Source: Nemertoderma westbladi (taxonomy: Eukaryota > Animalia > Xenacoelomorpha). Taken from it: a stretch of 64,000 bases of DNA. Both the position numbers and the translations under genes were made by a program. Where the stretch lies: positions 1,417-65,416 of the forward strand of contig JAUCBJ010005435.1 of assembly GCA_032718475.1 (NCBI GenBank), written 5' to 3'. Below the pieces are notes generated by a model. That model was not told the DNA's origin, ran no database searches, and saw nothing but the letters and a program-made list of their open reading frames with translations. The stretch's first letter is position 1, and each line of letters begins with the position of its first letter. Below are positions 16,161 to 57,500 of the stretch, one piece after another.

Positions 16161-16217
16161 ATGGCGGCTACTCGATTATTCGACGATGTGTATTCTTCCG
16201 AAGATTGCGATGACATG
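16161..16217 (+). CDS. Candidate first coding exon (MAATRLFDDVYSSEDCDDM)
   Basis: ATG-initiated 19 codons ending at a perfect donor ATG|GTAAGT in phase 0, matching the phase-0 acceptor at 20717. No homology support. Confidence 0.45.
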
Positions 16218-22200: not shown

Positions 22201-24524
22201 CAGAATATTTTAATTAATTTCACAATAAGGTGTGATTCAATGGGAAATTAGTAATATTTACACTGGCGTGTTACACATTAATTGCTATATCTCGGTAACT
22301 AAAAGTCGCATCAAGTTTTTAAATATATCAACAACTTCACGATATATTAAGGTAACTGTTGTAAAAAAATTATACAATTCCACTGCAAGGAAATTTCATA
22401 ATTTCCATTAATGTTAGTGAAGATTTTTCACATACTTAAATTGTGATTGCTCTATTGATTTTAGGTGTAATTAATTTATTTTTTTTTAGTTTGAAAACCG
22501 CAATTAGTTTATCATATAACAAATACATTTTTTGGGGATAAGGGTTTTTGAGTTCGATAAATCCGATGGGCGAGGTTACATCCACCCGTTTAGTAGAGAA
22601 GTTGTGTAAATAAGATCCTTATATTGTACCAGCAAAAATATTATTAAAAATGGTTAAATTATTAGACAAATTTCCGTTGCTCTGGAAACTAAATTGGTAA
22701 CCATATAGAAGTGCATACTTCTGTCAATCGATAGTCATTAGAGTAAAGTTTGTCTGTACGAAATTTGGAGAAAATCCCACCAATAGACCCCTTGTTGCTA
22801 TGTAAAATCCATGTTGCTAAGGAAAGAAACAGCAAATTGAAGGAGATCCGCATAATATATTTTTATAGACTTTTTTGGGGGTATTAACAAGGTAATGTAG
22901 AATAACAAAAAATTTGGTTTGGGTGAATTGCGAATTTGTTATGGGTTGACCCCCTTTTTCGGCTAGATTGACTCGCCTAAAGTACAACTATTTTTCTACC
23001 TGATCCATGTATTATTTTACTTGATACAGGTCGTCTTCATCACAAAATAATCTCCGAGGATTATTTCGACATGTTATTTACTCACGAATGGCTCGTCGGT
23101 CTTCCAGAAAATACCGAAGCCAACCCTCTAAAGCACTGCGTGCTGTGTGGACCCCAAGGAGTCGTTAGGTAAGTTAGTTACACCAAGGTTCCACCTTGGA
23201 GTTAGTAGTGGTCGCATTGAATTCACATCTCCCGTAGGTCGTGGGTTCGATCCTCACATGGGCCAGGGCAGTTTTCGTTTCGGCACGAATGCTTTAAAGG
23301 GACCAGCCAGGGCGCATCGCTGCCTTGCATCCTTAAGTAGTAGCTAAATGAGTAATGGAGTTTCCTCTGGGGAGTAAAGTTCTGGGGGGACCCTGGAAAT
23401 AAGTCGTCAGACTTTGTGCGTAATCCCTGGCCTATCGGCCGAAGAAAATTTACTTTTACTTTACTTTACTTTAGTTTAATGTCTTTATCCCAATCTGTTA
23501 GTAACATGTTGCTTGTTGTTGATTACCCCGCCGTAAAAGATAACTGTTTTTTTTACCCCCTTAAATTTATTTTTATCAGGTTAACATGGGAAGAAGTTAC
23601 CCACCCTAAATGCCAGTCGTCCGATACAATATTGATGCATTCTCTTCGCCGCTCAAAGAAATTCCAATCCAAAGCTTCCCGCGCCAGTATGTCCAGCACG
23701 GGCTCAGTTAGCTCGGAGGCAGAACTTACAGACAGGTAGGTTAGGTTGTTCGGTTATTAATTGTTGGTCAGCCGGTCTGTAAGTGTCCGTCAAGGTTGGT
23801 CGGTTATTGTTGGTCAGCCGGTAGTGTCGGTCACTTAACTTACAGACAGGTAGGTTAGGTTGGTCGGTTATTGTTGGTCAGCCGGTTTGTAGTGTCGGTC
23901 ACTTAACTAACCGACAGGTAGGTTAGGTTGGTCGGTTATTGTTGGTCAGCCGGTTTGTAGTGTCGGTCACTTAACTAACAGACAGGTAGGTTAGGTTGGT
24001 CGGTTATTGTTGGTCAGCCGGTTTGTAGTGTCGGTCACTTAACTTACAGACAGGTAGGTTAGGTTGGTCGGTTATTGTTGGTCAGCCGGTAGTGTCGGTC
24101 ACTTAACTTACAGACAGGTAGGTTAGGTTGGTTATTGTTGGTCAGCCTGTTTGTAGCGTCGGTCACTGAATTTACTTTGGAGTAGCGCCAACTTAATGTT
24201 GCCTGTGCTGTGCGGCTTATTTATTATGAACTATTGTGTCTGTCCGAGTCCGTCTAATATTTGTTGCAGTCTCATGTACAGGCATTATACGGTAAGGTAT
24301 ATATAGATCCTGTTCCTGTACTATAATACTCTAAGTGACATCCTCCAATATTTTTTCCACTTCTGAACAAAAAGCCCTAGACCATGTATTAATTACAGTC
24401 GTATTATCACCTTAACCACAATTCATTGATTTGAGTTTGTTTGTAGTTTGCAGCTTTACGTGTAAGTCTGGTTTGATTTTGTTTGCCTTTCTTCGTCTAC
24501 TCACTCTCTTTTTCTGTCTGTCTG

Positions 24525-24589
<65 letters not shown>

Positions 24590-27500
24590 GCCTGTCTGTC
24601 TGTCTGTGTCTGTCTGTCCTCTATTAGTATTAACTAAGTATTTTCTTTCCAACAGTCCGAGTCCGAAACCGTCGCCAAAGATTTCAGATAAATTCCGTAA
24701 ACACCGGAGTCCCTCGATCGACTTCAACGGATTGAACCGGTCGATATTCGGTAGAAAATCATCTTCGAAACTCCAACAGCCTATCAAAGAGGAATCCTTC
24801 CGCGATCGCAGTAAAACACATCCAGACTCTAATAAATCTAACAGTCTAACTGTGGGCCTATCCGCAAATTGTTTAAATAATTACAGTAAGGAAACCCCGC
24901 CCCCCTCACATGCGGAATCGGTTCCCCCATCTAGTGCCCCCTACCTCCCCCCCACATCCCCCCTCCTCCGTCGCCACCCCAAGCTGAACGCCGTCGGCCG
25001 TCGGTCAGCTCGCGATCGTCCCGCTTCCATCGCCGACGCCTCCAGTCTGGGCCTCGCAGCCGGCGGTTCCCTCCCAACCTCCGGAGTCTCCACGCCCAGT
25101 CTCCCGGGGTTACCGAAGTCCCAGACCTACACGTCCGGCGTCGGGGAGGTCAGCTCCACTTCCGTCGGTTACGGTGACGTCATCGTTGCCAGGCGACTAC
25201 ACGAGGCGCTGGAACACAGCGCGCAGACGGTGCGCGGCGGATGGATCGAGACTGACCTGGACGCTGCCATGGCAACGGTTTCCTCGACGACCGGAGACGA
25301 CGCAGAGCCTCCCTCGCCTACAGCCGACTTAGCTCAACGCCTTGCCGAAACTGAAAGTTTATTAGGCAACGCCGGAACTCCTCATTCCTCTCTTCATTCA
25401 GAAAGTTAGTTGAAATTTATTCACTTATATTATCTGGTTGTTCTCTTACAGGGGCGGCCAAGTCAATGACTATATAATTGTGTCATCTATGTAACATCAT
25501 AAAGTTGTAAGTTCATACGTAGAACGTAAATACACTTAACAATATATTTTGGTAGTTATTCGATCGAAAATAATGTCGCTAAAAATCTATCGAAATTTTT
25601 TTCATTTGCGATGAGTTTCGATTAATTTTTTAACTATAGAATTTTAAACTTTTTTTAACAAAAAGCTTAACATACAGTTTTTTATTAATTTTAATTATTC
25701 TGTAATTTTGAATGTTAAAATTTTAGAACAAAACTAAAAGTACATAAACACACAGTATTCTAATACTCATAATGCATTTGTACTCTATCAATCCATTCAT
25801 TATTTAATCTAAATATAACAAACCGTTCTCAACCAAATTGTAAATTGTAAAGTGCGACTTTACACAAATAATTTTTTTGAAATATTAAGCATATTATTAT
25901 TTTTAGAGTACCAGTTAAATGACTGGGAGGAAATCTTGGGATAGGTGTAACGCCCACGGCCCACCCCTACCCTCGGGTAGCAGCTATCGAAAGAGGAGCC
26001 TTCGGGTCGCCTTCGGGTCGCCTCCGGCTTCGACCGACTGTTTGCTTGCTTGATTCTTTATAAAATAAAATTTTTATAATAGTAACCAATAAATAATTGA
26101 TAATTTTTTTATATATTACATTGGTAATAATCGAAAATCATCGGTAATCAATCGAAAATTTCAGTAAATCGATCGAAATATTTGGTAAATTTCGATGGAC
26201 AACGCTAACTATAAATCACCAAGAATTTAGTATTATGAGGATGGAGTGGATGGAGTTAATTTATTTTTATTTCAATTAAATTTGTGATAAATAATTAAAA
26301 GTCAAATATTCAGACATCAAATTTCAAATTTGGCTACTTTTGACTGGAATGACTCTATTGTGCAATCCAGGGTTACCTAAATTTGTCTACGTAATACCCA
26401 CACGTTAGTGGAGCCTCCCCACAGGGCGAAGTTAGCAATCGTAGCACATAAGGTGCGAATAAGGCCCTACTCGAGCAGCTGGGTGCACCCAAGCAAATTA
26501 TATTGACACAGTTTAATTTAATCAAAGATCGAGAGTTAATCTGATAAAATAAGCCTGCCACCTTTCGCCGACTGACAGACAGACCGACCGACCGACATTC
26601 ATCGGTTAATAGCGATACCCGTATATGCTATAAATCTCTCTTTTTCGGGGTTCGTCCTTGAACTTGTAACTAAAGGAAGCATTACTGTGCGGTGCGGGAG
26701 ATGGGCTATCAATCCGTTATATCAGTGCACATAGTTATTGGCGTGTAGTTAACTTCTTTAAAGTAACCGGCCATTGTTTGTTTACATGTATGTATACCCA
26801 TCATATTTACCTAAAACGCTTTTATAATTAATTTAGATTAATACTTTTTTTTGCGATAATTTGGCGGCTACTTTTGTCACTTTTGACGAGAATCAACCAC
26901 GTAATAATTTATATTTTTGATATGCATATTCAATTCAAACTTTTTTTTTCAATAATTATCTTTATAATTAATTATTGGCCATTTATAGTTATCAGAAGAA
27001 AGATATATATCTTGTATGATTCACTAATAATAAACTACCTCAGCAATAAACCTGTTTTTTTATTCTCTCTCTTGTAGGACCCTCTCCATATACGAATTCC
27101 TTCATTGCCAGCCAACTATGCATCTCCATACCCCGCCAATGTATAGAAGTTAACTTCGAATTGTTACATTCCGGTTCTTGTATCATTCCAGGTATGTAAC
27201 ATTCAGTTAATCCTATGTGATTCTCTTTACTCTAATAACAGTATTTATCATTTTAAATGATTGTTATTCCAAAGTTTGTACTTTAACGTGGTTTTCGTTC
27301 TGTTGTACATTATTACTAGAGTATACGTGGCTATATCTCACAATTCAGTTACATTTAATTAATAGCGAATAAAGGAAATGCTTTGGATATATTGGGATAT
27401 TATTGGGATATCAATATTATTTATGGGGAGGGGATACTTCATTAAATATTTTGGACGCGATATTAGGCGAGTTCTTATCAATGTAACTATATCAACTAAA

Positions 27501-30500
27501 CTCTGAACGTCGTTTTTAAATGAACATATCCAATTGGTTAAATGCTTTTTTGGTTAATTATGATGGTGACAGGAAATGGAAGGTTTGTGTTTAACATAGA
27601 GTAATTATTACTTCATTGTCTGTCCAGGAACGCGAGATTTAAATCAGAGACCGGTTATTGAATTGAACACAGCCAACCCAATTTGGTCTGGAACAGAACT
27701 CAGCAGTCTGGATGTCGGAAAGCTGCTTCTTTACTACTCCAATATACCGAGGTGAGTTTTATAAACTCAACCCAGTTAGACTTAAGCGGTGCTATACTAT
27801 GACTGTGGATAATATAGACTACGTCCTACGTCATTAACATTTGATGCCTTCTCATATAACTCTCCATTTATTTAGCACACAACTAACATAAACTCTATCA
27901 TAATGCAACTCCCATTTATTTATCACACGGCAACCATAAACTTTCTCATATGTAACTCCCATTTATTTCTCACACAGTTCCCATAAACTTTCTCATATGT
28001 AACTCCCATTAATTTCTCACACAGTTCCCATAAACTTTCTCATATGTAACTCCCATTCATTTATCACACGGCATCCATAAACTTTCTCATATGTAACTCC
28101 CATTCATTTCTCACACAGTTCCCATAAACTTTCTCATATGTAACTCCCATTAATTTCTCACAAGGCATCCATAAACTTTCTCATATGTAACTCCCATTCA
28201 TTTCTCACACAGTTCCCACAAACTTTGTCATATGTAACTCCCATTCATTTCTCACACAGTTCCCATAAACTTTCTCATATGTAACTCCCATTCATTTCTC
28301 ACAAGGCATCCATAAACTTTCTCATATGTAACTCCCATTCATTTCTCACACAGTTCCCATAACCTTTCTCATATGTAACTCCCATTAATTTCTCAAAAGG
28401 CATCCATAAACTTTCTCATATGTAACTCCCATTCATTTCTCACACAGTTCCCATAAACTTTCTCATATGTAACTCCCATTAATTTCTCACACAGTTCCCA
28501 TAAACTTTTTCATATGTAACTCCCATTCATTTATCACACGGCACCCATAAACTTTCTCATATGTAACTCCCATTCATTTCTCACACAGTTCCCATAAACT
28601 TTCTCATATGTAACTCCCATTCATTTCTCACACAGTTCCCATAAACTTTCTCGTATGTAACTCCCATTCATTTATCACACGGCACCCATAAACTTTCTCA
28701 CATGTAACTCCCATTCATTTATCACACGGCATCCATAAACTTTTTCATATGTAACTCCCATTCCTTTATCACACGGCACCGATAAACTTTCTCATATGTA
28801 ACTCCCATTTATTTATCACACGGCATCCATAAACTTTTTCATATGTAACTCCCATTCATTTATCACACGGCATCCATAAACTTTTTCATATGTAACTCCC
28901 ATTCCTTTATCACACGGCACCCATAAACTTTCTCATATGTAACTCCCATTTATTTATCACACGGCATCCATAAACTTTTTCATATGTAACTCCCATTCAT
29001 TTATCACACGGCATCCATAAACTTTTTCATATGTAACTCCCATTCCTTTATCACACGGCACCGATAAACTTTCTCATATGTAACTCACATAGCACCCGAC
29101 CCATTAATTTTCTCATATGTATCTCACATTTATTTCTCACACAACTGTCTTATAAACTTTCTCTTTTATTTCTCACACAATTATCTTATAAACTCTCTCA
29201 TTTATTTCTCACATAGCATCCATAAACTTTCTCATATGTAACTCACATTTATTTCTCACACAACTCTCATATAAACTTCCTCATTTATTTCTCACACAAA
29301 TCTCTTATAAACTCTCTCATTTATTTCTCACATAGCATCCATAAGCTTTCTCATATGTAACTCACATTTATTTCTCACACGGCACCCATAAACCTTCTCA
29401 TATGTAACTCACATTTATTTCTCACACATCTCTCTTATAAACTTCCTCATTTATTTCTCACACAAATCTCTTATAAACTATCTCATTTATTTCTCACACA
29501 TCTCTCTCATAAACATCCTCACCTCATTTATTTCTCACACAAATCTCTTATAAACTCTCTCATTTATTTCTCACATCTCTCTTATAAACTTCCTCATTTA
29601 TTTCTCACACAAATCTCTTATAAACTTTCTCATTTATTTCTCACACAGTTCCCAGGATTTAACTCGCGGTATGACAGTACTCGTTGACGCTCGCTGGGCT
29701 CTGTTATCTGCGGCTGATATTCTAAGTAAATCGATTGTCTACTTCGAAACAATGAGACCGGGGTGTATTCGTAGACTTCATATCGTCTGTCAAAATTCGA
29801 CTCAGGTAAGACCTGAACAACATTATCTATATTAATTTTATCATAATTTGAAAAATATTACCAAGACACGTCACAGAATTTATATTTTTGTAATATTATC
29901 GATTTCCCGGTTCCCACATATCACTAATAGCCACCACACCACACCAATCGTTCGCCTATTCTTTAATTTCTTGTTTATAATTCTCAGTTATATTGATCTG
30001 TTTGCAGGTATTCATAGAGAAGAAATGTGCTGTAACTCGTATTGGAACGCTAACGTTAACGTTTAGCAACTCAATGCAGTCTTTATTGGATATTTCCGAT
30101 CGCCATCAATTAACCACCTACTCCGGGGGTCGATATACGTACCTGCACGAGGATTGGATCCGTTTCAGAATGAAGGTGAGTTCGAACACGGGGATTGGAT
30201 CCGGTTCAGAATGAAGGTGAGTTCGAACACGGGGATTGGATCCTGTTCAGAATGAAGGTGAGTTCGAACACGGGGATTGGATCCGGTTCAGAATGAAGGT
30301 GAGTTCGAACACGGGGATTGGATCCGTTTCAGAATGAAGGTGAGTTCGAACACGGGGATTGGATCCGTTTCAGAATGAAGGTGAGTTCGAACACGGGGAT
30401 TGGATCCGTTTCAGAATGAAGGTGAGTTCGAACACGGGGATTGGATCCGTTTCAGAATGAAGGTGAGTTCGAACACGGGGATTGGATCCGTTTCAGAATG

Positions 30501-33500
30501 AAGGTGAGTTCGAACACGGGGATTGGATCCGTTTCAGAATGAAGGTGAGTTCGAACACGGGGATTGGATCCGGTTCAGAATGAAGGTGAGTTCGAACGCG
30601 GGGATTGGATCCGTTTCAGAATGAAGGTGAGTTCGAACACGGGGATTGGATCCGGTTCAGAATGAAGGTGAGTTCGAACACGGGGATTGGATCCGGTTCA
30701 GAATGAAGGTGAGTTCGAACACGGGGATTGGATCCGGTTCAGAATGAAGGTGAGTTCGAACACGGGGATTGGATCCGTTTCAGAATGAAGGTGAGTTCGA
30801 ACACGGGGATTGGATCCGTTTCAGAATGAAGGTGAGTTCGAACACGGGGATTGGATCCGGTTCAGAATGAAGGTGAGTTCGAACGCGGGGATTGGATCCG
30901 TTTCAGAATGAAGGTGAGTTCGAACACGGGGATTGGATTCGGTTCAGAATGAAGGTGAGTTCGAACACGAGGATTGGATCCGGTTCAGAATGAAGGTGAG
31001 TTCGAACACGGGGATTGGATCCGGTTCAGAATGAAGGTGAGTTCGAACACGGGGATTGGATTCGGTTCAGAATGAAGGTGAGTTCGAACACGAGGATTGG
31101 ATCCGGTTCAGAATGAAGGTGAGTTCGAACACGGGGATTGGATCCGGTTCAGAATGAAGGTGAGTTCGAACACGAGGATTGGATCCGGTTCAGAATGAAG
31201 GTGAGTTCGAACACGGGGATTGGATCCGGTTCAGAATGAAGGTGAGTTCGAACACGGGGATTGGATCCGTTTCAGAATGAAGGTGAGTTCGAACACGGGG
31301 ATTGGATCCGGTTCAGAATGAAGGTGAGTTCGAACACGGGGATTGGATCCGGTTCAGAATGAAGGTGAGTTCGAACACGGGGATTGGATCCGTTTCAGAA
31401 TGAAGGTGAGTTCGAACACGGGGATTGGATCCGTTTCAGAATGAAGGTGAGTTCGAACACGAGGATTGGATCCGGTTCAGAATGAAGGTGAGTTCGAACA
31501 CGGGGATTGGATCCGGTTCAGAATGAAGGTGAGTTCGAACACGGGGATTGGATCCGGTTCAGAATGAAGGTGAGTTCGAACACGGGGATTGGATCCGGTT
31601 CAGAATGAAGGTGAGTTCGAACACGGGGATTGGATCCGGTTCAGAATGAAGGTGAGTTCGAACACGGGGATTGGATCCGGTTCAGAATGAAGGTGAGTTC
31701 GAACACGGGGATTGGATCCGGTTCAGAATGAAGGTGAGTTCGAACACGGGGATTGGATCCGGTTCAGAATGAAGGTTGAGTTCGAACACGGGGATTGGAT
31801 CCGGTTCAGAATGAAGGTGAGTTCGAACACGGGGATTGGATCCGGTTCAGAATGAAGGTGAGTTCGAACACGGGGATTGGATCCGGTTCAGAATGAAGGT
31901 GAGTTCGAACACGGGGATTGGATCCGGTTCAGAATGAAGGTGAGTTCGAACACGGGGATTGGATCCGGTTCAGAATGAAGGTGAGTTCGAACGCGGGGAT
32001 ATTTATGTTATACTTACTTAGTATTGATTGACACACAACCTAGCTAAGTCTCTCTATATCCCTCGTTGCGTTCTCTCTCTGTAGTTGGAACCATTATCGG
32101 AACTGTGTAAGGCGGCGGCTAGTTTCCTCCGTCGGATGCACACGGAACTCTCTACGGAATCCATCCCTTCCTTCGCTCGGGATATATCATCCCTACACGC
32201 CCATCACGAGAGTCGCATTGCCAGTATCCACGAAGATGCGAGGGTAGATCGGTTGCTAAGCGACGGTCCCACTGCTCTCAAGTCACTCAAGAACGAATCA
32301 ATGTCGCTTGGTTAGTGTGGGTTTCTTGTGTCTGTCTAGTCTAACATTGTATCAATTGGTTAGTCAGTTTACTGTGTCTGTCTATCATTGTATCAATTGG
32401 TTAGTGTAAGTTTACTGTGTCTGTCTAACATTGTATCAATTGGTATTGTGTCTGTCTAACATTGTATCAATTGTTTAGTGTTAGTTTATTGTGTCTGTCT
32501 AACATTGTACCAATTTGTTAGTGTCTGTTTATTGTGTCTGTCTAACATTGTATCAATTGGTTAGTGTCTGTTTATTGTGTCTGTCTAACATTGTACCAAT
32601 TGGTTAGTGTCTGTTTATTGTGTCTGTCTAACATTGTATCAATTGGTAGTGTCGGATTATTGTGTCGTCTGACATTGTATCAATTGGTTAGTGTCGGTTT
32701 ATTGTGTCTGTCTATCATTGTATCAATTGGTTAGTGTCGGTTTATTGTGTTGTCTAACATTGTATCAATTGGTTAGTGTCGGTTTATTGTGTCTGTCTAT
32801 CATTGTATCAATTGGTTAGTGTCGGTTTATTGTGTCTGTCTATCATCGTATCAATTGGTAGTGTCGGTTTATTGTGTCTGTCTAACATTGTATCAATTGG
32901 TTAGTGTCGGTTTATTGTGTCTGTCTAACATTGTATCAATTGGTAGTGTCGGTTTATTGTGTCTGTCTAACATTGTATCAATTGGTTAGTGTCGGTTTAT
33001 TGTGTCTGTCTAACATTGTATCAATTGGTAGTGTCGGTTTATTGTGTCTGTCTAACATTGTATCAATTGGTTAGTGTCGGTTTATTGTATCTGTCTAACA
33101 TTGTATCAATTGGTAGTGTCGGTTTATTGTGTCTGTCTAACATTGTATCAATTGGTTAGTATCGGTTTCTTGTGTCGTCTAACATTGTATCAATTGGTTA
33201 GTGTCGGTTTATTGTGTTTGTCTAACATTGTATCAATTGGTTAGTGTCGGTTTATTGTGTCGTCTAACATTGTATCAATTGGTAGTGTCGGTTTATTGTG
33301 TCTGTCTATCATTGTATCAATTGGTAGTGTCGGTTTATTGTGTCGTCTAACATTGTATCAATTGGTAGTGTCGGTTTATTGTGTTTGTCTAACATTCTAT
33401 CAATTGGTTAGTGTCGGTTTATTGTGTATGATTAACATTGTATCAATTGGTTAGTGTCGGTTTATTGTGTCTGTCTAACATTGTATCAATTGGTTAGTTT

Positions 33501-36500
33501 CGATTTATTGTGTCTGTCTAACATTGTTTCAATTGGTTAGTGTCGGTTTATTGTGTCTGTCAAACATTCTATCAATTGGTTAGTGTCGGTTTATTGTGTC
33601 TGTCAAATATTCTATCAATTGGTAGTGTCGGTTTATTGTGTCTGTCTATCATTGTATCAATTGGTTAGTATCGGTTTATTGTTTCGTCTAACATTGTATC
33701 AATTGGATAGTGTCGGTTTATTGTGTCTGTCTATCATTGTATCAATTGGATAGTGTCGGTTTATTGTGTCGTCTAACATTGTATCAATTGGTTAGTGTCG
33801 GTTTATTGTGTCTGTCTAACATTGTTTCAATTGGTTAGTTTCGGTTTATTGTGTCTGTCTAACATTGTATCAATTGGTTAGTGTCGGTTTATTGTGTCTG
33901 TCTAACATTGTATCAATTGGTTAGTTTCGATTTATTGTGTCTGTCTAACATTGTATCAATTGGTTAGTGTCGGTTTATTGTGTCTGTCTATCATTGTATC
34001 AATTGGTTAGTATCGGTTTATTGTGTCGTCTAACATTGTATCAATTGGATAGTGTCGGTTTATTGTGTCTGTCTATCATTGTATCAATTGGATAGTGTCG
34101 GTTTATTGTGTCGTCTAACATTGTATCAATTGGATAGTGTCGGTTTATTGTGTCTGTCTATCATTGTATCAATTGGATAGTGTCGGTTTATTGTGTCGTC
34201 TAACATTGTATCAATTGGTTAGTGTCGGTTTATTGTGTCTGTCTAACATTGTTTCAATTGGTTAGTTTCGGTTTATTGTGTCTGTCTAACATTGTATCAA
34301 TTGGTTAGTGTCGGTTTATTGTGTCTGTCTAACATTGTATCAATTGGTTAGTTTCGATTTATTGTGTCTGTCTAACATTGTATCAATTGGTTAGTGTCGG
34401 TTTATTGTGTCTGTCTATCATTGTATCAATTGGTTAGTATCGGTTTATTGTGTCGTCTAACATTGTATCAATTGGATAGTGTCGGTTTATTGTGTCTGTC
34501 TATCATTGTATCAATTGGATAGTGTCGGTTTATTGTGTCGTCTAACATTGTATCAATTGGTTAGTGTCGGTTTATTGTGTTTGTCTAACATTCTATCAAT
34601 TGGTTAGTGTCGGTTTATTGTGTCTGTCTATCATTGTATCAATTGGTTAGTGTCGGTTTATTGTGTCTGTCTAACATTGTATCAATTGGTTAGTTTCGAT
34701 TTATTGTGTCTGTCTAACATTGTTTCAATTGGTTAGTGTCGGTTTATTGTGTCTGTCTAACATTGTATCAATTGGTTAGTTTCGATTTATTGTGTCTGTC
34801 TAACATTGTTTCAATTGGTTAGTGTCGGTTTATTGTGTCTGTCAAACATTCTATCAATTGGTTAGTGTCGGTTTATTGTGTCTGTCAAATATTCTATCTA
34901 TTGGTAGTGTCGGTTTATTGTGTCTGTCTATCATTGTATCAATTGGTTAGTGTCGGTTTATTGTGTATGTCAAACATTCTATCAATTGGTTAGTGTCGGT
35001 TTATTGTGTCTGTCAAATATTCTATCAATTGGTAGTGTCGGTTTATTGTGTCTGTCTATCATTGTATCAATTGGTTAGTATCGGTTTATTGTGTCGTCTA
35101 ACATTGTATCAATTGGATAGTGTCGGTTTATTGTGTCTGTCTATCATTGTATCAATTGGTTAGTATCGGTTTATTGTGTCGTCTAACATTGTATCAATTG
35201 GATAGTGTCGGTTTATTGTGTCTGTCTATCATTGTATCAATTGGATAGTGTCGGTTTATTGTGTCGTCTAACATTGTATCAATTGGTTAGTGTCGGTTTA
35301 TTGTGTCTGTCTAACATTGTTTCAATTGGTTAGTTTCGGTTTATTGTGTCTGTCTAACATTGTATCAATTGGTTAGTTTCGATTTATTGTGTCTGTCTAA
35401 CATTGTTTCAATTGGTTAGTGTCGGTTTATTGTGTCTGTCAAACATTCTATCAATTGGTTAGTGTCGGTTTATTGTGTCTGTCAAATATTCTATCAATTG
35501 GTAGTGTCGGTTTATTGTGTCTGTCTATCATTGTATCAATTGGTTAGTGTCGGTTTATTGTGTCTGTCTAACATTGTATCAATTGGTTAGTTTCGATTTA
35601 TTGTGTCTGTCTAACATTGTTTCAATTGGTTAGTGTCGGTTTATTGTGTCTGTCAAACATTCTATCAATTGGTAGTGTCGGTTTATTGTGTCTGTCTATC
35701 ATTGTATCAATTGGATAGTGTCGGTTTATTGTGTCTGTCTATCATTGTATCAATTGGTTAGTATCGGTTTATTGTGTCGTCTAACATTGTATCAATTGGA
35801 TAGTGTCGGTTTATTGTGTCTGTCTATCATTGTATCAATTGGATAGTGTCGGTTTATTGTGTCGTCTAACATTGTATCAATTGGTTAGTGTCGGTTTATT
35901 GTGTCTGTCTAACATTGTATCAATTGGTTAGTGTCGGTTTATTGTGTCTGTCTAACATTGTATCAATTGGTAGTGTCGGTTTATTGTGTCTGTCTAACAT
36001 TGTATCAATTGGTTAGTGTCGGTTTATTGTATCTGTCTAACATTGTATCAATTGGTAGTGTCGGTTTATTGTGTCTGTCTAACATTGTATCAATTGGTTA
36101 GTATCGGTTTCTTGTGTCGTCTAACATTGTATCAATTGGTTAGTGTCGGTTTATTGTGTTTGTCTAACATTCTATCAATTGGTTAGTGTCGGTTTATTGT
36201 GTCTGTCAAACATTGTATCAATTGGTTAGTGTCGGTTTATTGTGTCTGTCTAACATTGTATCAATTGGTTAGTTTCGATTTATTGTGTCTGTCTAACATT
36301 GTTTCAATTGGTTAGTGTCGGTTTATTGTGTCTGTCAAACATTCTATCAATTGGTTAGTGTCGGTTTATTGTGTCTGTCAAATATTCTATCAATTGGTAG
36401 TGTCGGTTTATTGTGTCTGTCTATCATTGTATCAATTGGTTAGTATCGGTTTATTGTTTCGTCTAACATTGTATCAATTGGATAGTGTCGGTTTATTGTG

Positions 36501-45500: not shown

Positions 45501-48500
45501 CATGTAGGATGACAAGGTGAGTATGGGACCATGTAGGGTGACAAGGTGAGTATGGGACCGTGTAGGGTGACAGGTGAGTATGGGACCGTGTAGGGTGACA
45601 AGGTGAGTATGGGACCATGTAGGGTGACAAGGTGAGTATGGGACCATGTAGGGTGACAAGGTGAGTATGGGACCATGTAGGGTGACAAGGTGAGTATGGG
45701 ACCGTGTAGGGTGACAAGGTGAGTATGGGACCATGTAGGGTGACAAGGTGAGTATGGGACCATGTAGGGTGACAAGGTGAGTATGGGACCGTGTAGGGTG
45801 ACAAGGTGAGTATGGGACCGTGTATGGTGACAAGGTGAATATGGGACCGTGTAGGGTGACAAGGTGAGTATGGGACCATGTAGGGTGACAAGGTGAGTAT
45901 GGGACCGTGTATGGTGACAAGGTGAATATGGGACCGTGTAGGGTGACAAGGTGAGTATGGGACCATGTAGGGTGACAAGGTGAGTATGGGACCGTGTAGG
46001 GTGACAAGGTGAGTATGGGACCGTGTAGGGTGACAAGGTGAGTATGGGACCGTCTAGGGTGACAAGGTGAGTATGGGACCATGTAGAGTGACAAGGTCCA
46101 TGTAGGGTGACAAAGGTGAGTATGGGACCATGTAGGGTGACAAGGTGAGTATGGGACCATGTAGGGTGACAATGTGAGTATGGGACCATGTAGGGTGACA
46201 AGGTGAGTATGGGACCGTGTAGGGCGACAAGGTGAGTATGGGACCGTCTAGGGTGACAAGGTGAGTATGGGACCATGTAGAGTGACAAGGTCCATGTAGG
46301 GTGACAAAGGTGAGTATGGGACCATGTAGGGTGACAAGGTGAGTATGGGACCATGTAGGGTGACAAGGTGAGTATGGGACCATGTAGGGTGACAAAGGTG
46401 AGTATGGGACCATGTAGGGTGACAAGGTGAGTATGGGACCATGTAGGGTGACAAGGTGAGTATGGGACCATGTAGGGTGACAAAGGTGAGTATGGGACCA
46501 TGTAGGGTGACAAGGTGAGTATGGGACCATGTAGGGTGACAAGGTGAGTATGGGACCATGTAGGGTGACAAGGTGAGTATGGGACCGTGTAGGGTGACAA
46601 GGTGAGTATGGGACCATGTAGGGTGACAAGGTGAGTATGGGACCATGTAGGGTGACAAGGTGAGTATGGGACCATGTAGGGTGACAAGGTGAGTATGGGA
46701 CCATGTAGGGTGACAAAGGTGAGTATGGGACCATTTAGGGTGACAAGGTGAGTATGGGACCATGTAGGGTGACAAGGTGAGTATGGGACCATGTAGGGTG
46801 ACAAGGTGAGTATGGGACCGTGTAGGGTGACAAGGTGAGTATGGGACCGTGTAGGGTGACAAGGTGAGTATGGGACCGTGTAGGGTGACAAGGTGAGTAT
46901 GGGACCGTGTAGGGTGACAAGGTGAGTATGGGACCATGTAGGGCGACAAGGTGAGTATGGGACCATGTAGGGCGACAAGGTGATTATGGGACCATGTAGG
47001 GTGACAAGGTGAGTATGGGACCATGTAGGGTGACAAGGTGAGTATGGGACCATGTAGGGTGATAAGGTGAGTATGGGACCATGTAGGGTGACAAGGTAAG
47101 TATGGGACCATGTAGGGTGACAAGGTGAGTATGGGACCATGTAGGGTGACAATGTGAGTATGGGACCATGTAGGGTGACAAGGTGAGTATGGGACCATGT
47201 AGGGTGACAAGGTGAGTATGGGACCATGTAGGGTGACAAGGTGAGTATGGGACCATGTAGGGTGACAAGGTGAGTATGGGACCATGTAGGGTGACAAGGT
47301 GAGTATGGGACCATGTAGGGTGACAAGGTGAGTATGGGACCATGTAGGGTGACAAGGTGAGTATGGGACCGTGTAGGGTGACAAGGTGAGTATGGGACCA
47401 TGTAGGGTGACAAGGTGAGTATGGGACCATGTAGGGTGACAAGGTGAGTATGGGACCGTGTAGGGTGACAAGGTGAGTATGGGACCGTGTATGGTGACAA
47501 GGTGAATATGGGACCGTGTAGGGTGACAAGGTGAGTATGGGACCATGTAGGGTGACAAGGTGAGTATGGGACCGTGTATGGTGACAAGGTGAATATGGGA
47601 CCGTGTAGGGTGACAAGGTGAGTATGGGACCGTGTAGGGTGACAAGGTGAGTATGGGACCATGTAGGGTGACAAGGTGAGTATGGGACCATGTAGGGTGA
47701 TAAGGTGAGTATGGGACCGTGTAGGGTGACAAGGTGAGTATGGGACCATGTAGGGTGACAAGGTGAGTATGGGACCGTGTAGGGTGACAAGGTGAGTATG
47801 GGACCGTGTAGGGTGACAAGGTGAGTATGGGACCATGTAGGGTGACAAGGTGAGTATGGGACCGTGTAGGGTGACAAGGTGAGTATGGGACCATGTAGGG
47901 TGACAAGGTGAGTGAGTATGGGACCGTGTAGGGTGACAAGGTGAGTATGGGACCATGTAGGGTGACAAGGTGAGTATGGGACCGTGTAGGGTGACAAGGT
48001 GAGTATGGGACCGTGTAGGGTGACAAGGTGAGTATGGGACCGTGTAGGGTGACAAGGTGAGTATGGGACCATGTAGGGTGACAAGGTGAGTATGGGACCG
48101 TGTAGGGTGACAAGGTGAGTATGGGACCGTGTAGGGTAACAAGGTGAGTATGGGACCATGTAGGGTGACAAGGTGAGTATGGGGCCGTGTAGGGTGACAA
48201 GGTGAGTATGGGACCATGTAGGGTGACAAGGTGAGTATGGGACCATGTAGGGTGACAAGGTGAGTATGGGACCGTGTATGGTGACAAGGTGAGCATGGGA
48301 CCGTGTAGGGTGACAAGGTGAGTATGGGACCGTGTAGGGCGACAAGGTGAGTATGGGACCATGTAGGGTGACAAGGTGAGTATGGGTCCGTGTAGGGTGA
48401 CAAGGTGAGTATGGGACCGTGTAGGGTGACAAGGTGAGTGTGGGACCGTGTAGGGCGACAAGGTGAGTATGGGACCGTGTAGGGTGACAAGGTGAGTATG

Positions 48501-51500
48501 GGACCGTGTATGGTGACAAGGTGAGCATGGGAGCGTGTAGGGTGACAAGGTGAGTATGGGACCGTGTAGGGCGACAAGGTGAGTATGGGACCATGTAGGG
48601 CGACAAGGTGAGTATGGGACCGTGTAGGGTGACTAGGTGAGTATGGGACCATGTAGGGTGACAAGGTGAGTATGGGACCATGTAGGGTGACAAGGTGAGT
48701 ATGGGACCGTGTAGGGTGACAAGGTGAGTGTGGGACCGTGTAGGGCGACAAGGTGAGTATGGGACCGTGTAGGGTGACAATGTGAGTATGGGACCATGTA
48801 GGGCGACAAGGTGAGTATGGGACCGTGTAGGGTGACAAGGTGAGTATGGGACCGTGTAGGGTGACAAGGTGAGCATGGGACCGTGTAGGGCGACAAGGTG
48901 AGTATGGGACCGTGTATAGGGTGACAAGGTGAGTATGGGACCGTGTAGGGTGACAAGGTGAGTATGGGACCGTGTAGGGTGACAAGGTGAGTATGTGACC
49001 GTGTAGGGCGACAAGGTGAGTATGGGACCGTGTAGGGTGACAAGGTGAGTATGGGAGGACCATGTAGGGTGACAAAGGTGAGTATGGGACCGTGTATGGT
49101 GACAAGGTGAGTATGGGACCGTGTAGGGTGACAAGGTGAGTATGGGACCATGTAGGGTGACAAGGTGAGTATGGGACCGTGTATGGTGACAAGGTGAGTA
49201 TGGGACCGTGTATAGGGTGACAAGGTGAGTATGGGACCATGTAGGGTGACAAGGTGAGTATGGGACCGTGTAGGGTGACAAGGTGAGTATGGGACCGTGT
49301 AGGGTGACAAGGTGAGTATGGGACCGTGTAGGGTGACAAGGTGAGTATGGGAGGACCATGTAGGGTGACAAAGGTGAGTATGGGACCGTGTATGGTGACA
49401 AGGTGAGTATGGGACCATGTAGGGTGACAAGGTGAGTATGGGACCGTGTAGGGTGACAAGGTGAGTATGGGACCGTGTAGGGTGACAAGGTGAGTATGGG
49501 ACCGTGTAGGGTGACAAGGTGAGTATGGGAGGACCATGTAGGGTGACAAAGGTGAGTATGGGACCGTGTAGGGCGACAAAGTGAGTATGGGACCGTGTAG
49601 GGTGACAAGGTGAGTATGGGACCGTGTATGGTGACAAGGTGGGTATGGGACCGTGTATAGGGTGACAAGGTGAGTATGGGACCATGTAGGGTGAAAAGGT
49701 GAGTATGGGACCGTGTAGGGTGACAAGGTGAGTATGGGACCGTGTAGGGTGACAAGGTGAGTATGGGAGGACCATGTAGGGTGACAAAGGTGAGTATGGG
49801 ACCGTGTATGGTGACAAGGTGAGTATGGGACCGTGTAGGGTGACAAGGTGAGTATGGGACCATGTAGGGTGACAAGGTGAGTATGGGACCATGTAGGGTG
49901 ACAAGGTGAGTATGGGACCGTGTATGGTGACAAGGTGGGTATGGGACCGTGTATAGGGTGACAAGGTGAGTATGGGACCATGTAGGGTGACAAGGTGAGT
50001 ATGGGACCGTGTAGGGTGACAAGGTGAGTATGGGACCGTGTAGGGTGACAAGGTGAGTATGGGACCTTGTAGGGTGACAATGTGAGTATGGGAGGACCAT
50101 GTAGGGTGACAAAGGTGAGTATGGGACCGTGTATGGTGACAAGGTGAGTATGGGACCATGTAGGGTGACAAGGTGAGTATGGGACCGTGTAGGGTGACAA
50201 GGTGAGTATGGGACCATGTAGGGTGACAAGGTGAGTATGGGACCGTGTAGGGTGACAAGGTGAGTATGGGAGGACCATTTAGGGTGACAAAGGTGAGTAT
50301 GGGACCGTGTATGGTGACAAGGTGAGTATGGGACCATGTAGGGTGACAAGGTGAGTATGGGACCGTGTATGGTGACAAGGTGGGTATGGGACCGTGTATA
50401 GGGTGACAAGGTGAGTATGGGACCATGTAGGGTGAAAAGGTGAGTATGGGACCGTGTAGGGTGACAAGGTGAGTATGGGACCATGTAGGGTGACAAAGTG
50501 AGTATGGGACCGTGTAGGGTGACAAGGTGAGTATGGGACCATGTAGGGTGACAAGGTGAGTATGGGACCGTGTAGGGTGACAAGGTGAGTATGGGACCGT
50601 GTAGGGTGACAAGGTGAGTATGGGACCGTGTAGTGTGACAAGGTGAGTATGGGACCATGTAGGGTGACAAGGTGAGTATGGGACCGTGTAGGGTGACAAG
50701 GTGAGTATGGGACCGTGTAGGGTGACAAGGTGAGTATGGGACCATGTAGGGTGACAAGGTGAGTATGGGACCGTGTAGGGTAACAAGGTGAGTATGGGAC
50801 CATGTAGGGTGACAGGTGAGTATGGGACCATGTAGGGTGACAAGGTGAGTATGGGACCGTGTATGGTGACAAGGTGAGCATGGGACCGTGTAGGGTGACA
50901 AGGTGAGTATGGGACCGTGTAGGGCGACAAGGTGAGTATGGGACCATGTAGGGTGACAAGGTGAGTATGGGACCGTGTAGGGTGACAAGGTGAGTATAGG
51001 ACCGTGTAGGGTGACAAGGTGAGTATGGGACCGTGTAGGGCGACAAGGTGAGTATGGGACCGTGTACGGTGACAAGGTGAGTATGGGACCATGTAGGGTG
51101 ACAAGGTGAGTATGGGACCGTGTAGGGTGACAAGGTGGGTATGGGACCGTGTATGGTGACAAGGTGAGCATGGGACCGTGTAGGGTGACAAGGTGGGTAT
51201 GGGACCGTGTATGGTGACAAGGTGAGCATGGGACCGTGTAGGGTGACAAGGTGAGTATGGGACCGTGTAGGGCGACAAGGTGAGTATGGGACCATGTAGG
51301 GTGACAAGGTGAGTATGGGACCGTGTAGGGTGACAAGGTGAGTATGGGACCGTGTAGGGTGACAAGGTGAGTATGGGACCGTGTAGGGTGACAAGGTGAG
51401 TATGGGACCGTGTAGGGCGACAAGGTGAGTATGGGACCATGTAGGGTGACAAGGTGAGTATGGGACCGTGTAGGGTGACAAGGTGAGTATGGGACCGTGT

Positions 51501-54500
51501 ATGGTGACAGGTGAATATGGGACCGTGTAGGGTGACAAGGTGAGTATGGGACCATGTAGGGTGACAAGGTGAGTATGGGACCATGTAGGGTGACAAGGTG
51601 AGTATGGGACCGTCAAGGTGAGTATGGGACCGTGTATGGTGCAATTAGTTTAAGTTAATAGATTATCGGTAAATGGCATTAATTAATTAATATATTACAT
51701 GCGTATATACCAGTGCAATATTTGGTTATAATGGCCATACCGGGTATTTAATTGTATACCTCACTAATTTACCGCCTATACTAAGTTTATTTTCATATTA
51801 TAATCCTTTAACTGAGGAATTCATCATACTAATTGTTTGTTTGTCGGTTTTTTTGGTTTGTACTGTAAGTAAATTCTTTCTTATCATTTTGTAGATGTCC
51901 GAATTGGGTTTGACTCAGACCATCGGTGACTCTGGTTATAAGTTCGGGATTTGGTTCCGTCGATATACCTCGGCTGATAGTTTCACTTTACAGGCCAAAA
52001 GTAGCGAAGTTAAGGAAATCTGGGTCGCCGAGTTAACCAACCTATTACTTCATCAGGTTAGCCGAGTTAGCCAACCTATTACTTCATCAGGTTAGCCGAG
52101 TTAGCCAACCTATTACTTCATCAGGTTAGCCGAGTTAGCCAACCTATTACTTCATCAGGTTAGCCGAGTTAACCAACCTATTACTTCATCAGGTTAGCCG
52201 AGTTAGCCAACCTATTACTTCATCAGGTTAGCCGAGTTAGCCAACCTATTACTTCATCAGGTTAGCCGAGTTAGCCAACCTATTACTTCATCAGGTTAGC
52301 CGAGTTAGCCAACCTATTACTTCATCAGGTTAACCGAGTTAACCAACCTATTACTCCATCAGGTTAGCCGAGTTAGCCAACCTATTACTTCATCAGGTTA
52401 GCCGAGTTAACCAACCTATTACTTCATCAGGTTAGCCGAGTTAGCCAACCTATTACTTGATCAGGTTAGCCGAGTTAGCCAACCTATTACTTGATCAGGT
52501 TAGCCGAGTTAGCCAACCTATTACTTCATCAGGTTAGCCGAGTTAACCAACCTATTACTTCATCAGGTTAGCCGAGTTAACCAACCTATTACTTCATCAG
52601 GTTAGCCGAGTTAGCCAACCTATTACTTCATCAGGTTAGCCGAGTTAGCCAACCTATTACTTGATCAGGTTAGCCGAGTTAACCAACCTATTACTTCATC
52701 AGGTTAGCCGATTTAGCCAACCTATTACTTCATCAGGTTATCCGAGTTAGCCAACCTATTACTTCATCAGGTTAGCCGAGTTAGCCAACCTATTACTTGA
52801 TCAGGTTAGCCGAGTTAGCCAACCTATTACTTGATCAGGTTAGCCGAGTTAACCAACCTATTACTTGATCTGGTTAGCCGAGTTAACCAACCTATTACTT
52901 CATCAGGTTAGCCGAGTTAGCCAACCTATTACTTGATCAGGTTAGCAGAGTTAGCCAACCTATTACTTGATCAGGTTAGACGAGTTAACCAACCTATTAC
53001 TTGATCAGGTTAGCCGAGTTAACCAACCTATTACTTCATCAGGTTAGCCGAGTTAGCCAACCTATTACTTGATCAGGTTAGCCGAGTTAGCCAACCTATT
53101 ACTTGATCAGGTTAGCCGAGTTAACCAACCTATTACTTGATCAGGTTAGCCGAGTTAACCAACCTATTACTTCATCAGGTTAGCCGAGTTAACCAACCTA
53201 TTACTTCATCAGGTTAGCCGAGTTAACCAACCTATTACTTCATCAGGTTAGCCGAGTTAACCAACCTATTACTTGATCAGATTAGCAGAGTTAACCAACC
53301 TATTACTTCATCAGGTTAGCCGAGTTAGCCAACCTATTACTTCATCAGATTAATTAATAACCTACAACTTAATCTTTATTCACTAATTACTAATTTTTTA
53401 TTACATATCCATTTATATATCATTTACATTTACTCTTTTTATAGCGACTTATATGTTATTTATTCACTATATTTATAAATTGTTCAATTACGATTTATAA
53501 TTTTTTTTATTAACTAACTATTTTAATTTTAATTACTCAGTAACGAACTATTAGATACTCAATAACGAACTATTAATTATTTAGTAAGGAGTATTTAGCA
53601 AGAAAATAAAAAATTAAGTATTAAAAATAGTATATTTTCTAGCACAAAATAAGCCATGCTTCTGTGTTCGGAAATGTTGGCGCCTATGAAGTGGCTATAG
53701 TATTTAGTATAGTGGGGTCTGTGGCTGGGGGGGGGGGGGGGGGTGGTGGTATCAAGTATAGTCTTAGTATAATTAATAGTAGTATGCAGTTTTAATATTG
53801 TTGTTTAATTGTTATATATTATATTATATTATGAGTTATTAAGATTGTCTGAACGTTTGTTTTCAGGCGATGAGGAACCGGGAACGCCAACTATCTGAGA
53901 ATAATGCGATGGGAGTTGGAAGTAAACCATCGCTGACTCTAAAGAACAGTTCGTCCAGTATAACCAACAGAGCGCTGGCCTACCTGAAAACAGGCCGAGG
54001 TAAGTATAACCAACAGAGCCCTGGCCTACCTGAAAACAGGCCGAGGTAAGTATAACAAACAGAGCGCTGGCCTACCTGAAAACAGGCCGAGGTAAGTATA
54101 ACCAACAGAGCGCTGGCCTACCTGAAAACAGGCCGAGGTAAGTATAACCAACAGAGCGCTGACCTACCTGAAAACAGGCCGAGGTAAGTATAACCAACAG
54201 AGCGCTGACCTACCTGAAAACAGGCCGAGGTAAGTATAACCAACAGAGCGCTGGCCTATACCTGAAAACAGGCCGAGGTAAGTATAACCAACAGAGCGCT
54301 GGCCTTTCTGAAAACAGGCCGAGGTAAGTATAACCAACAGAGCGCTGGCCTACCTGAAAACAGGCCGAGGTAAGTATAACCAACAGAGCGCTGGCCTATA
54401 CCTGAAAACAGGCCGAGGTAAGTATAACCAACAGAGCGCTGGCCTTTCTGAAAACAGGCCGAGGTAAGTATAACCAACAGAGCGCTGGCCTACCTGAAAA

Positions 54501-57500
54501 CAGGCCGAGGTAAGTATAACCAACAGAGCGCTGACCTACCTGAAAACAGGCCGAGGTAAGTATAACCAACAGAGCGCTGACCTACCTGAAAACAGGCCGA
54601 GGTAAGTATAACCAACAGAGCGCTGGCCTTCCTGAAAACAGGCCGAGGTAAGTATAACCAACAGAGCGCTGGCCTATACCTGAAAACAGGCCGAGGTAAG
54701 TATAACCAACAGAGCGCTGGCCTTTCTGAAAACAGGCCGAGGTAAGTATAACCAACAGAGCGCTGGCCTTCCTGAAAACAGTCCGAGGTAACTATAACCA
54801 ACAGAGCGCTGACCTACCTGAAAACAAGCCGAGGTAAGTATAACCAACAGAGCGCTGGCCTTTCTGAAAACAGGCCGAGGTAAGTATAACCAACAGAGCG
54901 CTGGCCTACCTGAAAACAAGCCGAGGTAAGTATAACCAACAGAGCGCTGACCTACCTGAAAACAGGCCGAGGTAACTATAACCAACAGAGCGCTGACCTA
55001 CCTGAAAACAAGCCGAGGTAAGTATAACCAACAGAGCGCTGACCTACCTGAAAACAGGCCGAGGTAACTATAACCAACAGAGCGCTGACCTACCTGAAAA
55101 CAAGCCGAGGTAAGTATAACCAACAGAGCGCTGGCCTACCTGAAAACAGGCCGAGGTAAGTATAACCAACAGAGCGCTGGCCTACCTGAAAACAAGCCGA
55201 GGTAAGTATAACCAACAGAGCGCTGGCCTTTCTGAAAACAGGCCGAGGTAAGTATAACCAACAGAGCGCTGGCCTTTCTGAAAACAAGCCTAGGTAATAT
55301 TGCTGTAATTTAGTAGTGAAGGGGGGGGGGGGGGGGGGGGCTGACTTACTTAGTGGACATTCTGTGCTTTGTGACTGGTGGTGTGGCAAATTTCGTGACA
55401 CTTTGTGACTGGGTGGGAGGGTGTCTGAAATGTTTCACAATTTATAAGGTGGGTGTTGTTAGGTTGGCACTGTTAGCCATGCTGGGAGGTGGGTAAATGT
55501 TGACACATTGTGATGAAGGGGGGGGGGGGGGGGGACCTGTCTGAATCGGTCGATTCAGACAAGGTATTCTTTTAGTAACCCTTTCAACCAACAATGTTTT
55601 CATACATGTACATTTACTTCCAGGTGCCCGGGCACGTAATTCTATAGCGGTCTCGCCCGCCGACAACATGGGTGCATCGTGCAGTAAACGCCCACATTCA
55701 GTGATCTCTTACTCCAGTGGTAGTAGTTCAAATTCCTCAGTTATATCATCAAGTAAGTTTATTAATTTCTACTCGAGAATTTATGAGTAATGACTATTTA
55801 CATACTTGTGTGTAAAGTATTACAGTGTGATGATCCGAGTGTCTTTGTTACACGAACGAACGTTAGTGAGTGAGTGAAAATAAAGCTCCGAGGATCAGAA
55901 CACTGTAAAGTACTTTGCAACAAGTATATATGTAGTTTTATTCCAAAATGTTAACATTACGAAATGATTGTATATATATTATAAGTGATAGAAACTGCAC
56001 AAATTATATTAGTTGCTGTATAAATAAATGTAAAATGACATAAATTATGTTATAAATAAGTTAGCTTATATTTATGGTGGCGCGTGGAGCCATGTTATAA
56101 TAATATAGCTAGGCCCTACTGGTTATTAATAGCTATACCCCGCCTACCGGTAGGTAATGCAGTAGGCCTATCTGGCTGTCAGGTAAATTTCCACCTATTG
56201 TTTACGTTTCCATTTCCACCTATTGTTTACCTGGTATCCAATGACGGCGTTAAGTAATGTCCCCTTAGTGGACATTACTTAACGCCGTCATGGGTTACCA
56301 CGTAAACAATAACACCAAATACAATACTAAATGTACAGGCCAATACAATGCTGTAATGTCCTTTAAAGTTTTAAAGTGCTAAATAACAACTCGCTGTTAA
56401 TACTAACGGCGTTGAGTAATGTTACAATATTGGAATAAAGTAACATTATCGTATTTGCAATAAATTAATATTTTTAAATGTTAAATATAAACATTCACAT
56501 TCAATTCAAGAAAAACAACTTGGAATTTTTGTTGCCATTTTGTTCCTTTTTGGTAATTAATTATATCAATTTGGTAGTTAATATTATATTAAATTGACAA
56601 ACTCCTTGAATACATATAGTCAGGAACTTTCGTAAGAATAAATTCCCTATAACCAGTTGATATGTCGTACATTAATAATTATTTGTCCCACAAGTTATAA
56701 CTTTGCATTCTTGGTTTCCTAGGTTACACGCCGTTCTACCACAGTGGTTGCTATGACCCCGCCGCCCACCAACGACCCCAGTTGTCACAGCAACGCAGTA
56801 GCGAGAGTTACGGAGACTCGAGTCCGGTTGACGCAGTCAGCCCCGAGCCGCCCGTCGTTGGTGCCGGGCTAACATCTGGTTCACCTTCGGAGAGATTCGT
56901 TTCCCAAATATCCCAGTAAGTTGAAGTAAAATCCGTAAGTTCCTATTTGTTGCAGTTCACTATACCCTCGGTTAGACTTAAACACCAGTCTATACCGACG
57001 TTCATGTCTGCAAATATCGTTATTAGCTGGTCCTGATTACCTTGGCTAATTATACAATTCCCAAGGGTAATTATGCCATGCTGACATTGTAGTTACGAAC
57101 TTAGTGGCCGGAACATACAGAAAGACTGTCTTATAATAAATAATTTAAAAAGTTTATATTTATAGGCAGATTTTGTTCGATCTTTATTCGAATTCTCATT
57201 AGTTTTTAACGTACCGCTTTATTAATTAATAGTCATCGCCTGTCAATTCATACACTATATATCGTGACCATAGAGCCAGAACAACACATACCACACTACT
57301 TTTTGGTGAGTGTTGTTCTGGCTCTTTGATGGTCACGATGTGTTAGACCAAGAAGTTCAACTGCGGAGATATTAAAAATTATCCTTCTATACGGGATATT
57401 TTACTAATTAACACCTAACTTTTTTCTGTAAAGCGTTCTTTCTGTATATATATACAAAAAGTACTAACTTAATTTTTTTTTATAAGGAAACAGTTTACTT

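Follow-up and report, generated by a model that had tools for sequence, protein, structure and literature searches.

Tandem copies of exon–intron boundaries have been described before in two groups of animals, and the comparisons drawn here rest on excerpts of the articles cited. In amphioxus, such copies were named "mirages" and occur in Adh3, the globin genes BflGb6 and BflGb9, troponin C, and PGBD5 (PMC3087553, PMC3902484). They leave the main mRNA normal, and the excerpts state that their origin and the reason for their position at junctions are unclear (PMC3087553). In humans, variable number tandem repeats (VNTRs) span the donor site in five genes, namely F7 (intervening sequence [IVS] 7, unit of 37 bp), 6-16, CBS (IVS13), LMNB2, and PDGF (intron 4), and the choice of the first donor was studied experimentally for F7 (PMC1557585). 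Here, we analyze a dense new case in a puratrophin-1/PLEKHG4-like RhoGEF gene located on a stretch of 64,000 nucleotides (nt) from Nemertoderma westbladi (contig JAUCBJ010005435.1), which we refer to as the window. Arrays of junction copies occupy 7 of the 22 introns of this gene, and contigs that we read as RNA-derived support the splicing. An earlier note on this DNA, made from its letters only, had implied that the arrays were a new phenomenon, an implication that the amphioxus mirages and human donor VNTRs contradict.

Using Tandem Repeats Finder (TRF), we detected seven minisatellites in the gene with periods of 68, 47, 41, 43, 29, 34, and 46 bp, which confirms the places and periods given in the earlier note (Table 1). 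All seven overlap real splice junctions, six of them donors and one an acceptor. At 7 of the 44 junctions, junction-crossing copies scored 22 to 74, compared to null maxima of 7 to 11, whereas none of the remaining 37 scored above 8; maxima from shuffling ranged overall from 4 to 14. Together, the arrays contribute 21,652 of the 40,760 nt of the gene as assembled (53%), close to the previous estimate of about 22 kb and half of the gene; the previous total of 23 introns is reached only if a candidate micro-exon is counted. The approximately 550 donor copies proposed before were too many: we counted approximately 497 intact GT copies over the six donor arrays (5 + 44 + 173 + 212 + 35 + 28), with GA in 35 units of the 43-mer. 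The units are mutually unrelated, and TRF gave no element shared across introns, which speaks against an introner or transposon origin. Different arrays also lacked mutual matches in the rows shown of a self-BLAST of the window, from which matches starting inside arrays had been filtered out, so that TRF carries the evidence for unrelatedness.

That each unit copies its junction, as claimed before, is strongly borne out in four arrays, whose units include 13 to 43 exon nt, and only thinly in the other three (3 to 6 exon nt). In the acceptor array, 10 of the 40 upstream units carry the copy of AG plus exon start. All 10 are distant from the exon: they fall among the first 17 units, and the last 23 have none, although units are not independent of each other. 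Five of the six donor units read AG/GT. No unit length is a multiple of three, and each array-bearing intron retains 104 to 548 nt of unique sequence together with its distal splice site. Variants within the arrays are few and common to several units. Edge units diverge, with differing last units in the 34-, 46-, 29-, and 68-mers and a degenerate first unit in the 68-mer; the acceptor array is more diverged than the other arrays, and we read it as older. In the 34-mer, positions +5 and +6 of the working donor are supplied by the next copy. The last unit of this array has AT instead of GT, thus losing the +1 G, and its donor score is −0.2 compared to 8.5; the last unit of the 46-mer lacks the +5 G and scores 2.2 compared to 11.1. 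A G at +5 is present in all 22 working donors of the gene. We rejected conservation of GT among copies as a sign of selection, given that many other unit columns are equally invariant. Separately, conversion of array variants into the coding first units at 52027–52056 and 53957–53999 would alter residues of a PH-domain helix (e.g., Thr to Ala and His to Asp).

We assessed splice-site use in contigs of run X4. This run is labelled "DNA?"; we take it to be RNA-derived solely on the ground that six introns are missing from its contigs, each with GT..AG ends. The first donor was used at all four arrays tested directly (the 43-, 29-, 34-, and 46-mers), and the exon boundaries proposed earlier agree with the spliced contigs at these four donors. 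X4 contigs join the end of exon 11 (32310) to exon 12, exon 19 (45429) to exon 20, and exon 21 (53999) to exon 22. For the 34-mer, exon 21 starts at place 691 of the X4 record, as predicted from the first donor at 52056 (528 + 162 + 1), and exon 21 shows 0 differences between contig and window. Downstream sites that score as well as the used donor number 136, 185, 32, and 24 in the 43-, 29-, 34-, and 46-mers, respectively. Because the upstream donor is used, the mRNA is unchanged despite these 24 to 185 equally good sites, which upholds the earlier proposal of mRNA restoration by the first donor. Evidence for the 68-, 47-, and 41-mers is indirect: a single 3,781-nt X4 contig extends 2,253 nt upstream of exon 12, compared to 2,224 nt for exons 2 to 11 together, or 2,251 nt with the candidate micro-exon. 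This length is compatible with either inclusion or omission of the micro-exon, and the first donors of the 68- and 41-mers are probably used as well.

The same data bear on whether the arrays are kept for a function, serving as a series of alternative or backup donors or as points of recursive splicing. The AG/GT reading of five of the six donor units would suit such a role, as would the minor use of nearby copies reported in the excerpts for human 6-16 and CBS (PMC1557585). We nonetheless regard a function as very improbable. With none of the seven unit lengths divisible by three, use of the second copy would shift the frame; the X4 contigs use the first donor in four cases out of four; and the copy number of the 46-mer is possibly much lower in another sample.

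This last point comes from sequencing depth in further data sets. X2 derives from a different sample and study than X1, which is possibly the source of the window. Tandem joints of the 29-mer are present in both X1 and X2, with raised depth in X2, and X2 also contains a tandem joint of the 34-mer at raised depth; these two arrays are therefore not assembly artefacts. Uncovered stretches were given no weight in these comparisons. In X2 and X3, the 46-mer is represented by one 76-nt record with depths of 48 compared to approximately 25 (X2, approximately 2x) and 25 compared to approximately 7 (X3, approximately 3.5x), whereas its summed depth in X1 is 1351 compared to 18 to 41. The contrast is a hint of length polymorphism and no more than that, because contig depth is not copy number. 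We give virtually no credence to the idea that the arrays as a whole arose by assembly or amplification error. In its favor, the window possibly derives from X1, and the 46-mer reaches just 2 to 3.5 times single-copy depth in X2 and X3; against it stand the structured variants among units and the independent recovery of the 29- and 34-mers in another sample and study.

Given an authentic boundary in each array, unrelated units of minisatellite size, copies of GT or AG, splicing at the authentic site in the four cases tested directly, and concerted evolution with divergent edge units, the seven arrays belong to the class of mirages, or junction-spanning minisatellites. Like amphioxus mirages, they comprise boundary copies on both donor and acceptor sides, carry splice signals in many copies, and leave the mRNA normal; the excerpts give amphioxus units of 10 to 160 bp with edge units outside homogenization, and the units here are 29 to 68 bp with divergent edges. 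The scale differs, in that the BflGb6 mirage has three to six units, whereas the RhoGEF gene has arrays at seven junctions, with up to 212 copies and 9 kb. The host is not a lancelet: its RhoGEF protein is 36% identical to that of Branchiostoma over 1,114 amino acids (aa) and forms a separate long branch. As in the human VNTRs, the first unit spans the exon end plus the donor, identical pseudo-donors follow downstream, and the most upstream site is used (PMC1557585). The F7 repeat takes 4 exon nt, resembling our cases with 3 to 5 nt, but according to the excerpts each human gene has one array of 5 to 25 copies (PMC1557585), compared to six donor arrays and approximately 500 copies here. Intron gain by tandem duplication likewise begins with a short duplication that includes splice signals, and a case from potato crosses an intron–exon boundary; it makes a new intron, whereas the arrays described here enlarge existing ones (excerpts of PMC4974935). 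The distinction from that model drawn in the earlier note stands, since unique intron sequence and the distal splice site are kept. In Rogers-type gain, a wholly exonic AG/GT unit gives both ends of the new intron; every unit here holds intron bases, and the X4 contigs skip from the first donor to the next exon.

Our preferred reading, to which we assign a probability of roughly 0.55, is that the arrays are seven independent mirage minisatellites, each of which arose from one junction duplication, grew by slippage and unequal exchange, and was tolerated through first-donor choice, with duplication biased toward exon ends. First, a piece of 29 to 68 bp across the junction would have been doubled, aided by 1 to 10 nt of imperfect homology between the breakpoints. 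In keeping with a start as one duplication between short look-alikes, five donor arrays end past whole units by 9, 10, 3, 9, and 1 nt, with flanks that are imperfectly alike, and the 9-nt overhang of the 41-mer resembles the start of its unit. Slippage and unequal exchange would then have raised copy numbers to between 6 and 212, spreading variants while edge units diverged. The third step, use of the upstream donor, is the one that run X4 demonstrates at four of the six donor arrays; because the first donor is chosen, donor arrays are probably tolerated. Next, rival copies may have disappeared: those with AG close to the true acceptor, and the final donors of the mostly exonic 34- and 46-mers, although decay of edge units could account for the latter. 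Finally, and here we are least sure, the rate at which duplications begin would be higher at the ends of transcribed exons, or slightly inside them, than deep within introns. Because selection would remove wholly exonic duplications, survivors would accumulate on donors.

To compare the placement of arrays with chance, we drew random positions for eight units, matched in length to the real ones, in the gene with its arrays collapsed, excluding wholly exonic positions. Seven of the eight large arrays lie at junctions, compared to 0.96 expected (P for at least seven = 1.9e-6); omitting the three long introns brings the expectation to 1.62 (P = 7e-5). Within this gene, placement beyond chance thus holds as the earlier note had argued. 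The eighth large array is a counter-example, a 21-bp repeat in intron 1 away from known junctions. We most likely see the product of a higher duplication rate at or just inside exon ends and the loss of wholly exonic events. The density of arrays hints that working splice sites may favor junction copying.

Several results weigh against an origin of this kind. If only the four arrays with at least 13 exon nt are counted, the P values rise to 0.009 and 0.056, and if the 11 larger arrays of the whole window are considered, 7 of which lie at junctions, they are 8e-5 and 0.005. All P values are uncorrected, and they concern a single gene that was singled out post hoc in a very large scan, because of which the junction excess is suggestive and not established. 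The ratio of six donor arrays to one acceptor array is not significant (P = 0.09). Clustering of breakpoints near the junction is weak (P = 0.02 to 0.05, with values set by eye), and a scripted test of the phase of array ends gave a two-sided P of 0.25 (the 68-mer failed because of indels), so that a by-eye P of 2e-4 was not reproduced. The last donor is intact in four of the six donor arrays, the splicing evidence consists of contigs from a single run, which lose minor isoforms, and seven small TRF hits within introns include none at a junction. In addition, the matrix used to score donors was built from the 22 donors of this gene, the same ones that were scored. A result obtained with this matrix nonetheless supports the preferred reading: arrays are present at 6 of 18 real donors scoring at least 8.1, compared to none of 29 unused look-alikes from the two strands (P = 0.002), the cutoff being the score of the weakest array donor and sites inside arrays being left out; counting site 12188, which precedes the array that TRF reports at 12305, gives 1 of 29 (P = 0.009). 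A donor-like DNA motif as the only seed is disfavored by the unused look-alikes without arrays.

One competing explanation needs no bias at birth. In a minisatellite-rich genome with short introns, junction duplications would survive through the first donor, and this gene would be an extreme draw. We find this unlikely, yet worth serious weight. The introns are short, with a median of 365 nt once arrays are collapsed, TRF places other arrays of the window off known junctions (at 971, 10330, 12305, 16691, and 60127), and the window was selected after the fact. The null model already incorporates short introns and survival, however, and expects 1 to 1.6 of the eight arrays at junctions (P = 2e-6 to 7e-5); furthermore, the units of two arrays hold just 3 to 4 intron nt, which survival would disfavor. 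The earlier note had offered survival as an alternative, and its first-donor tolerance holds up, but survival alone predicts no excess over purely intronic arrays. It predicts a junction excess only if exons and their immediate surroundings are where duplications preferentially begin.

Because the small intronic hits lie off junctions, the bias may lie in growth rather than in birth. Duplications would then occur anywhere, and units bearing a donor would expand more, either because repeated U1 binding, pausing, or R-loops destabilize them or because U1 sites guard an intron from premature cleavage as it lengthens. Consistent with this, seven of eight large arrays are at junctions, a position shared by none of the six to seven small duplications within introns (Fisher P = 0.005 for a 7/0/1/6 table), the two arrays of approximately 200 copies are G-rich on the sense strand (0.30 and 0.60), and GT is kept in 212/212, 44/44, and 28/28 copies of the 29-, 41-, and 46-mers. 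Against it, invariance extends to many other unit columns, the 43-mer has lost GT in 35 units, dispersed repeats account for some of the small hits, two donor arrays lack G-skew, and the strongest skew in the window belongs to an array away from known junctions. Overall, we judge growth bias improbable.

Returning to a bias of duplication toward exon ends, its cause would hypothetically be found among the splicing machinery, pausing, R-loops, exon chromatin, and base composition; the seeds suggested in the earlier note, namely repair at spliceosome or Pol II pause sites, R-loops, and RNA-templated repair, are likewise hypothetical, and G-skew compatible with R-loops is present in only four of the seven arrays. 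A bolder and rather doubtful version holds that splice-site use is itself mutagenic in this lineage, such that a working 5′ splice site predisposes the DNA beneath it to short tandem duplication and runaway expansion, by way of U1 or spliceosome commitment, a paused polymerase, or an RNA:DNA hybrid. A full-text literature search, with most subscription papers outside its scope, found no genome-wide test of array enrichment at junctions.

The host gene is predicted to be intact, with a reading frame that is open across the coordinate-joined exons, GT..AG at all 22 introns, and 1,652 aa up to the stop. Pfam RhoGEF and PH domains are matched by single exons. Homologues of exon 18 carry the names puratrophin-1 and PLEKHG4B, with top identities of 60 to 63%, and among 120 homologous proteins the top full-length BLAST match is from Saccoglossus (703 bits, 37%). 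In a tree of 20 rows (the window protein and 19 of the 120 homologues, selected to cover a broad range), the protein sits on a long branch that falls outside the protostomes and joins neither lancelets nor vertebrates, hemichordates, or echinoderms, a placement that is unsure. GC content is 50% in exons and 33% in introns without arrays. Among metagenome contigs, a 22-nt pattern from a dispersed repeat had 0 matches, and the exon-18 peptide matched three distant loci among 96 candidate stretches (33 to 58% over 26 to 60 residues).

Table 1. Arrays, host gene, and exons, by position in the window.
Feature	Position	Strand	Details
68-bp donor array, intron 5	23723–24175	+	13 exon + 55 intron nt; donor after 23735; 5 intact donor copies
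47-bp acceptor array (plus derived 36-bp), intron 8	27849–29654	+	6 exon nt; true acceptor before 29649
41-bp donor array, intron 10	30146–32000	+	30 exon + 11 intron nt; donor after 30175; GT in 44/44 copies
43-bp donor array, intron 11	32308–41309	+	~210 copies, 3 exon nt exact; donor after 32310; ~170 copies with GT, 35 with GA
29-bp donor array, intron 19	45425–51633	+	212 copies, 5 exon nt; donor after 45429; GT in 212/212 copies
34-bp donor array, intron 20	52027–53352	+	30 exon + 4 intron nt, 38 copies; donor after 52056
46-bp donor array, intron 21	53957–55297	+	43 exon + 3 intron nt, 28 copies; donor after 53999; GT in 28/28 copies
21-bp array, intron 1	16691–17383		Eighth large array, away from known junctions
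Puratrophin-1/PLEKHG4-like RhoGEF gene (DH-PH)	16161–56920	+	23 coding exons, predicted intact
Exons 1–6	16161–16217, 20717–20923, 21423–21606, 23030–23168, 23580–23735, 24656–25404	+	Exon 1 predicted
Exons 7–12	27078–27191, 27628–27751, 29649–29805, 30008–30175, 32085–32310, 41717–41874	+	
Exons 13–18	42053–42172, 42321–42512, 42766–42940, 43207–43832, 44233–44491, 44785–45197	+	
Exons 19–23	45316–45429, 51895–52056, 53867–53999, 55624–55752, 56723–about 56920	+	
Candidate micro-exon	24270–24296	+	27 nt, in frame; would raise intron count to 23

The window contains further repeats. Upstream of the RhoGEF gene, a 1.4-kb G-rich higher-order array (34/50/84 bp; 12180–13731) starts with degenerate units right after the donor-like site 12188 (score 8.9) and possibly represents an older mirage, one that belongs to a 5′ exon not yet annotated. 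A (TCTG)27 microsatellite at 24513–24618 ends 38 nt before the exon 6 acceptor, close to the junction without crossing it. Intron 1 holds nested inverted repeats at 18711–20283 (18711–19066 with 19916–20283, and 19099–19243 with 19671–19817) that resemble a non-autonomous DNA transposon or foldback element. Near the 3′ end of the gene, 140 nt (56950–57087) recur 4.4 kb downstream (61312–61452) with 96% identity. At 60127–60517, two 23-bp tandem arrays in inverted orientation flank a run of C and together resemble a hairpin of approximately 390 nt. Inverted repeats of 103 nt at 1904–2006 and 3453–3555 (97% identity, 1.65 kb apart) surround a 44-bp triplet repeat and likely represent an element of the miniature inverted-repeat transposable element type. 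Two clusters of a degenerate repeat family of 70 to 100 bp are located at 10330–11050 and 4375–4520, and many G or C homopolymers of 14 to 25 nt occur at several places between 6083 and 55536, both intronic and intergenic.

Although the class of junction arrays is known already, the RhoGEF gene adds a dense case with RNA support. Because half of this gene consists of junction copies, it calls for caution in gene prediction and assembly. It also provides a natural extreme test of first-donor choice outside mammals, with up to 185 equal sites downstream of the one used. With arrays in 7 of the 22 introns of a single gene, such a genome offers the numbers to separate birth bias, growth bias, and survival. 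If splice sites are indeed mutagenic in this lineage, a quarter of the gene's donors would have become kilobase arrays, and intron size would be driven outward from the exon edge.

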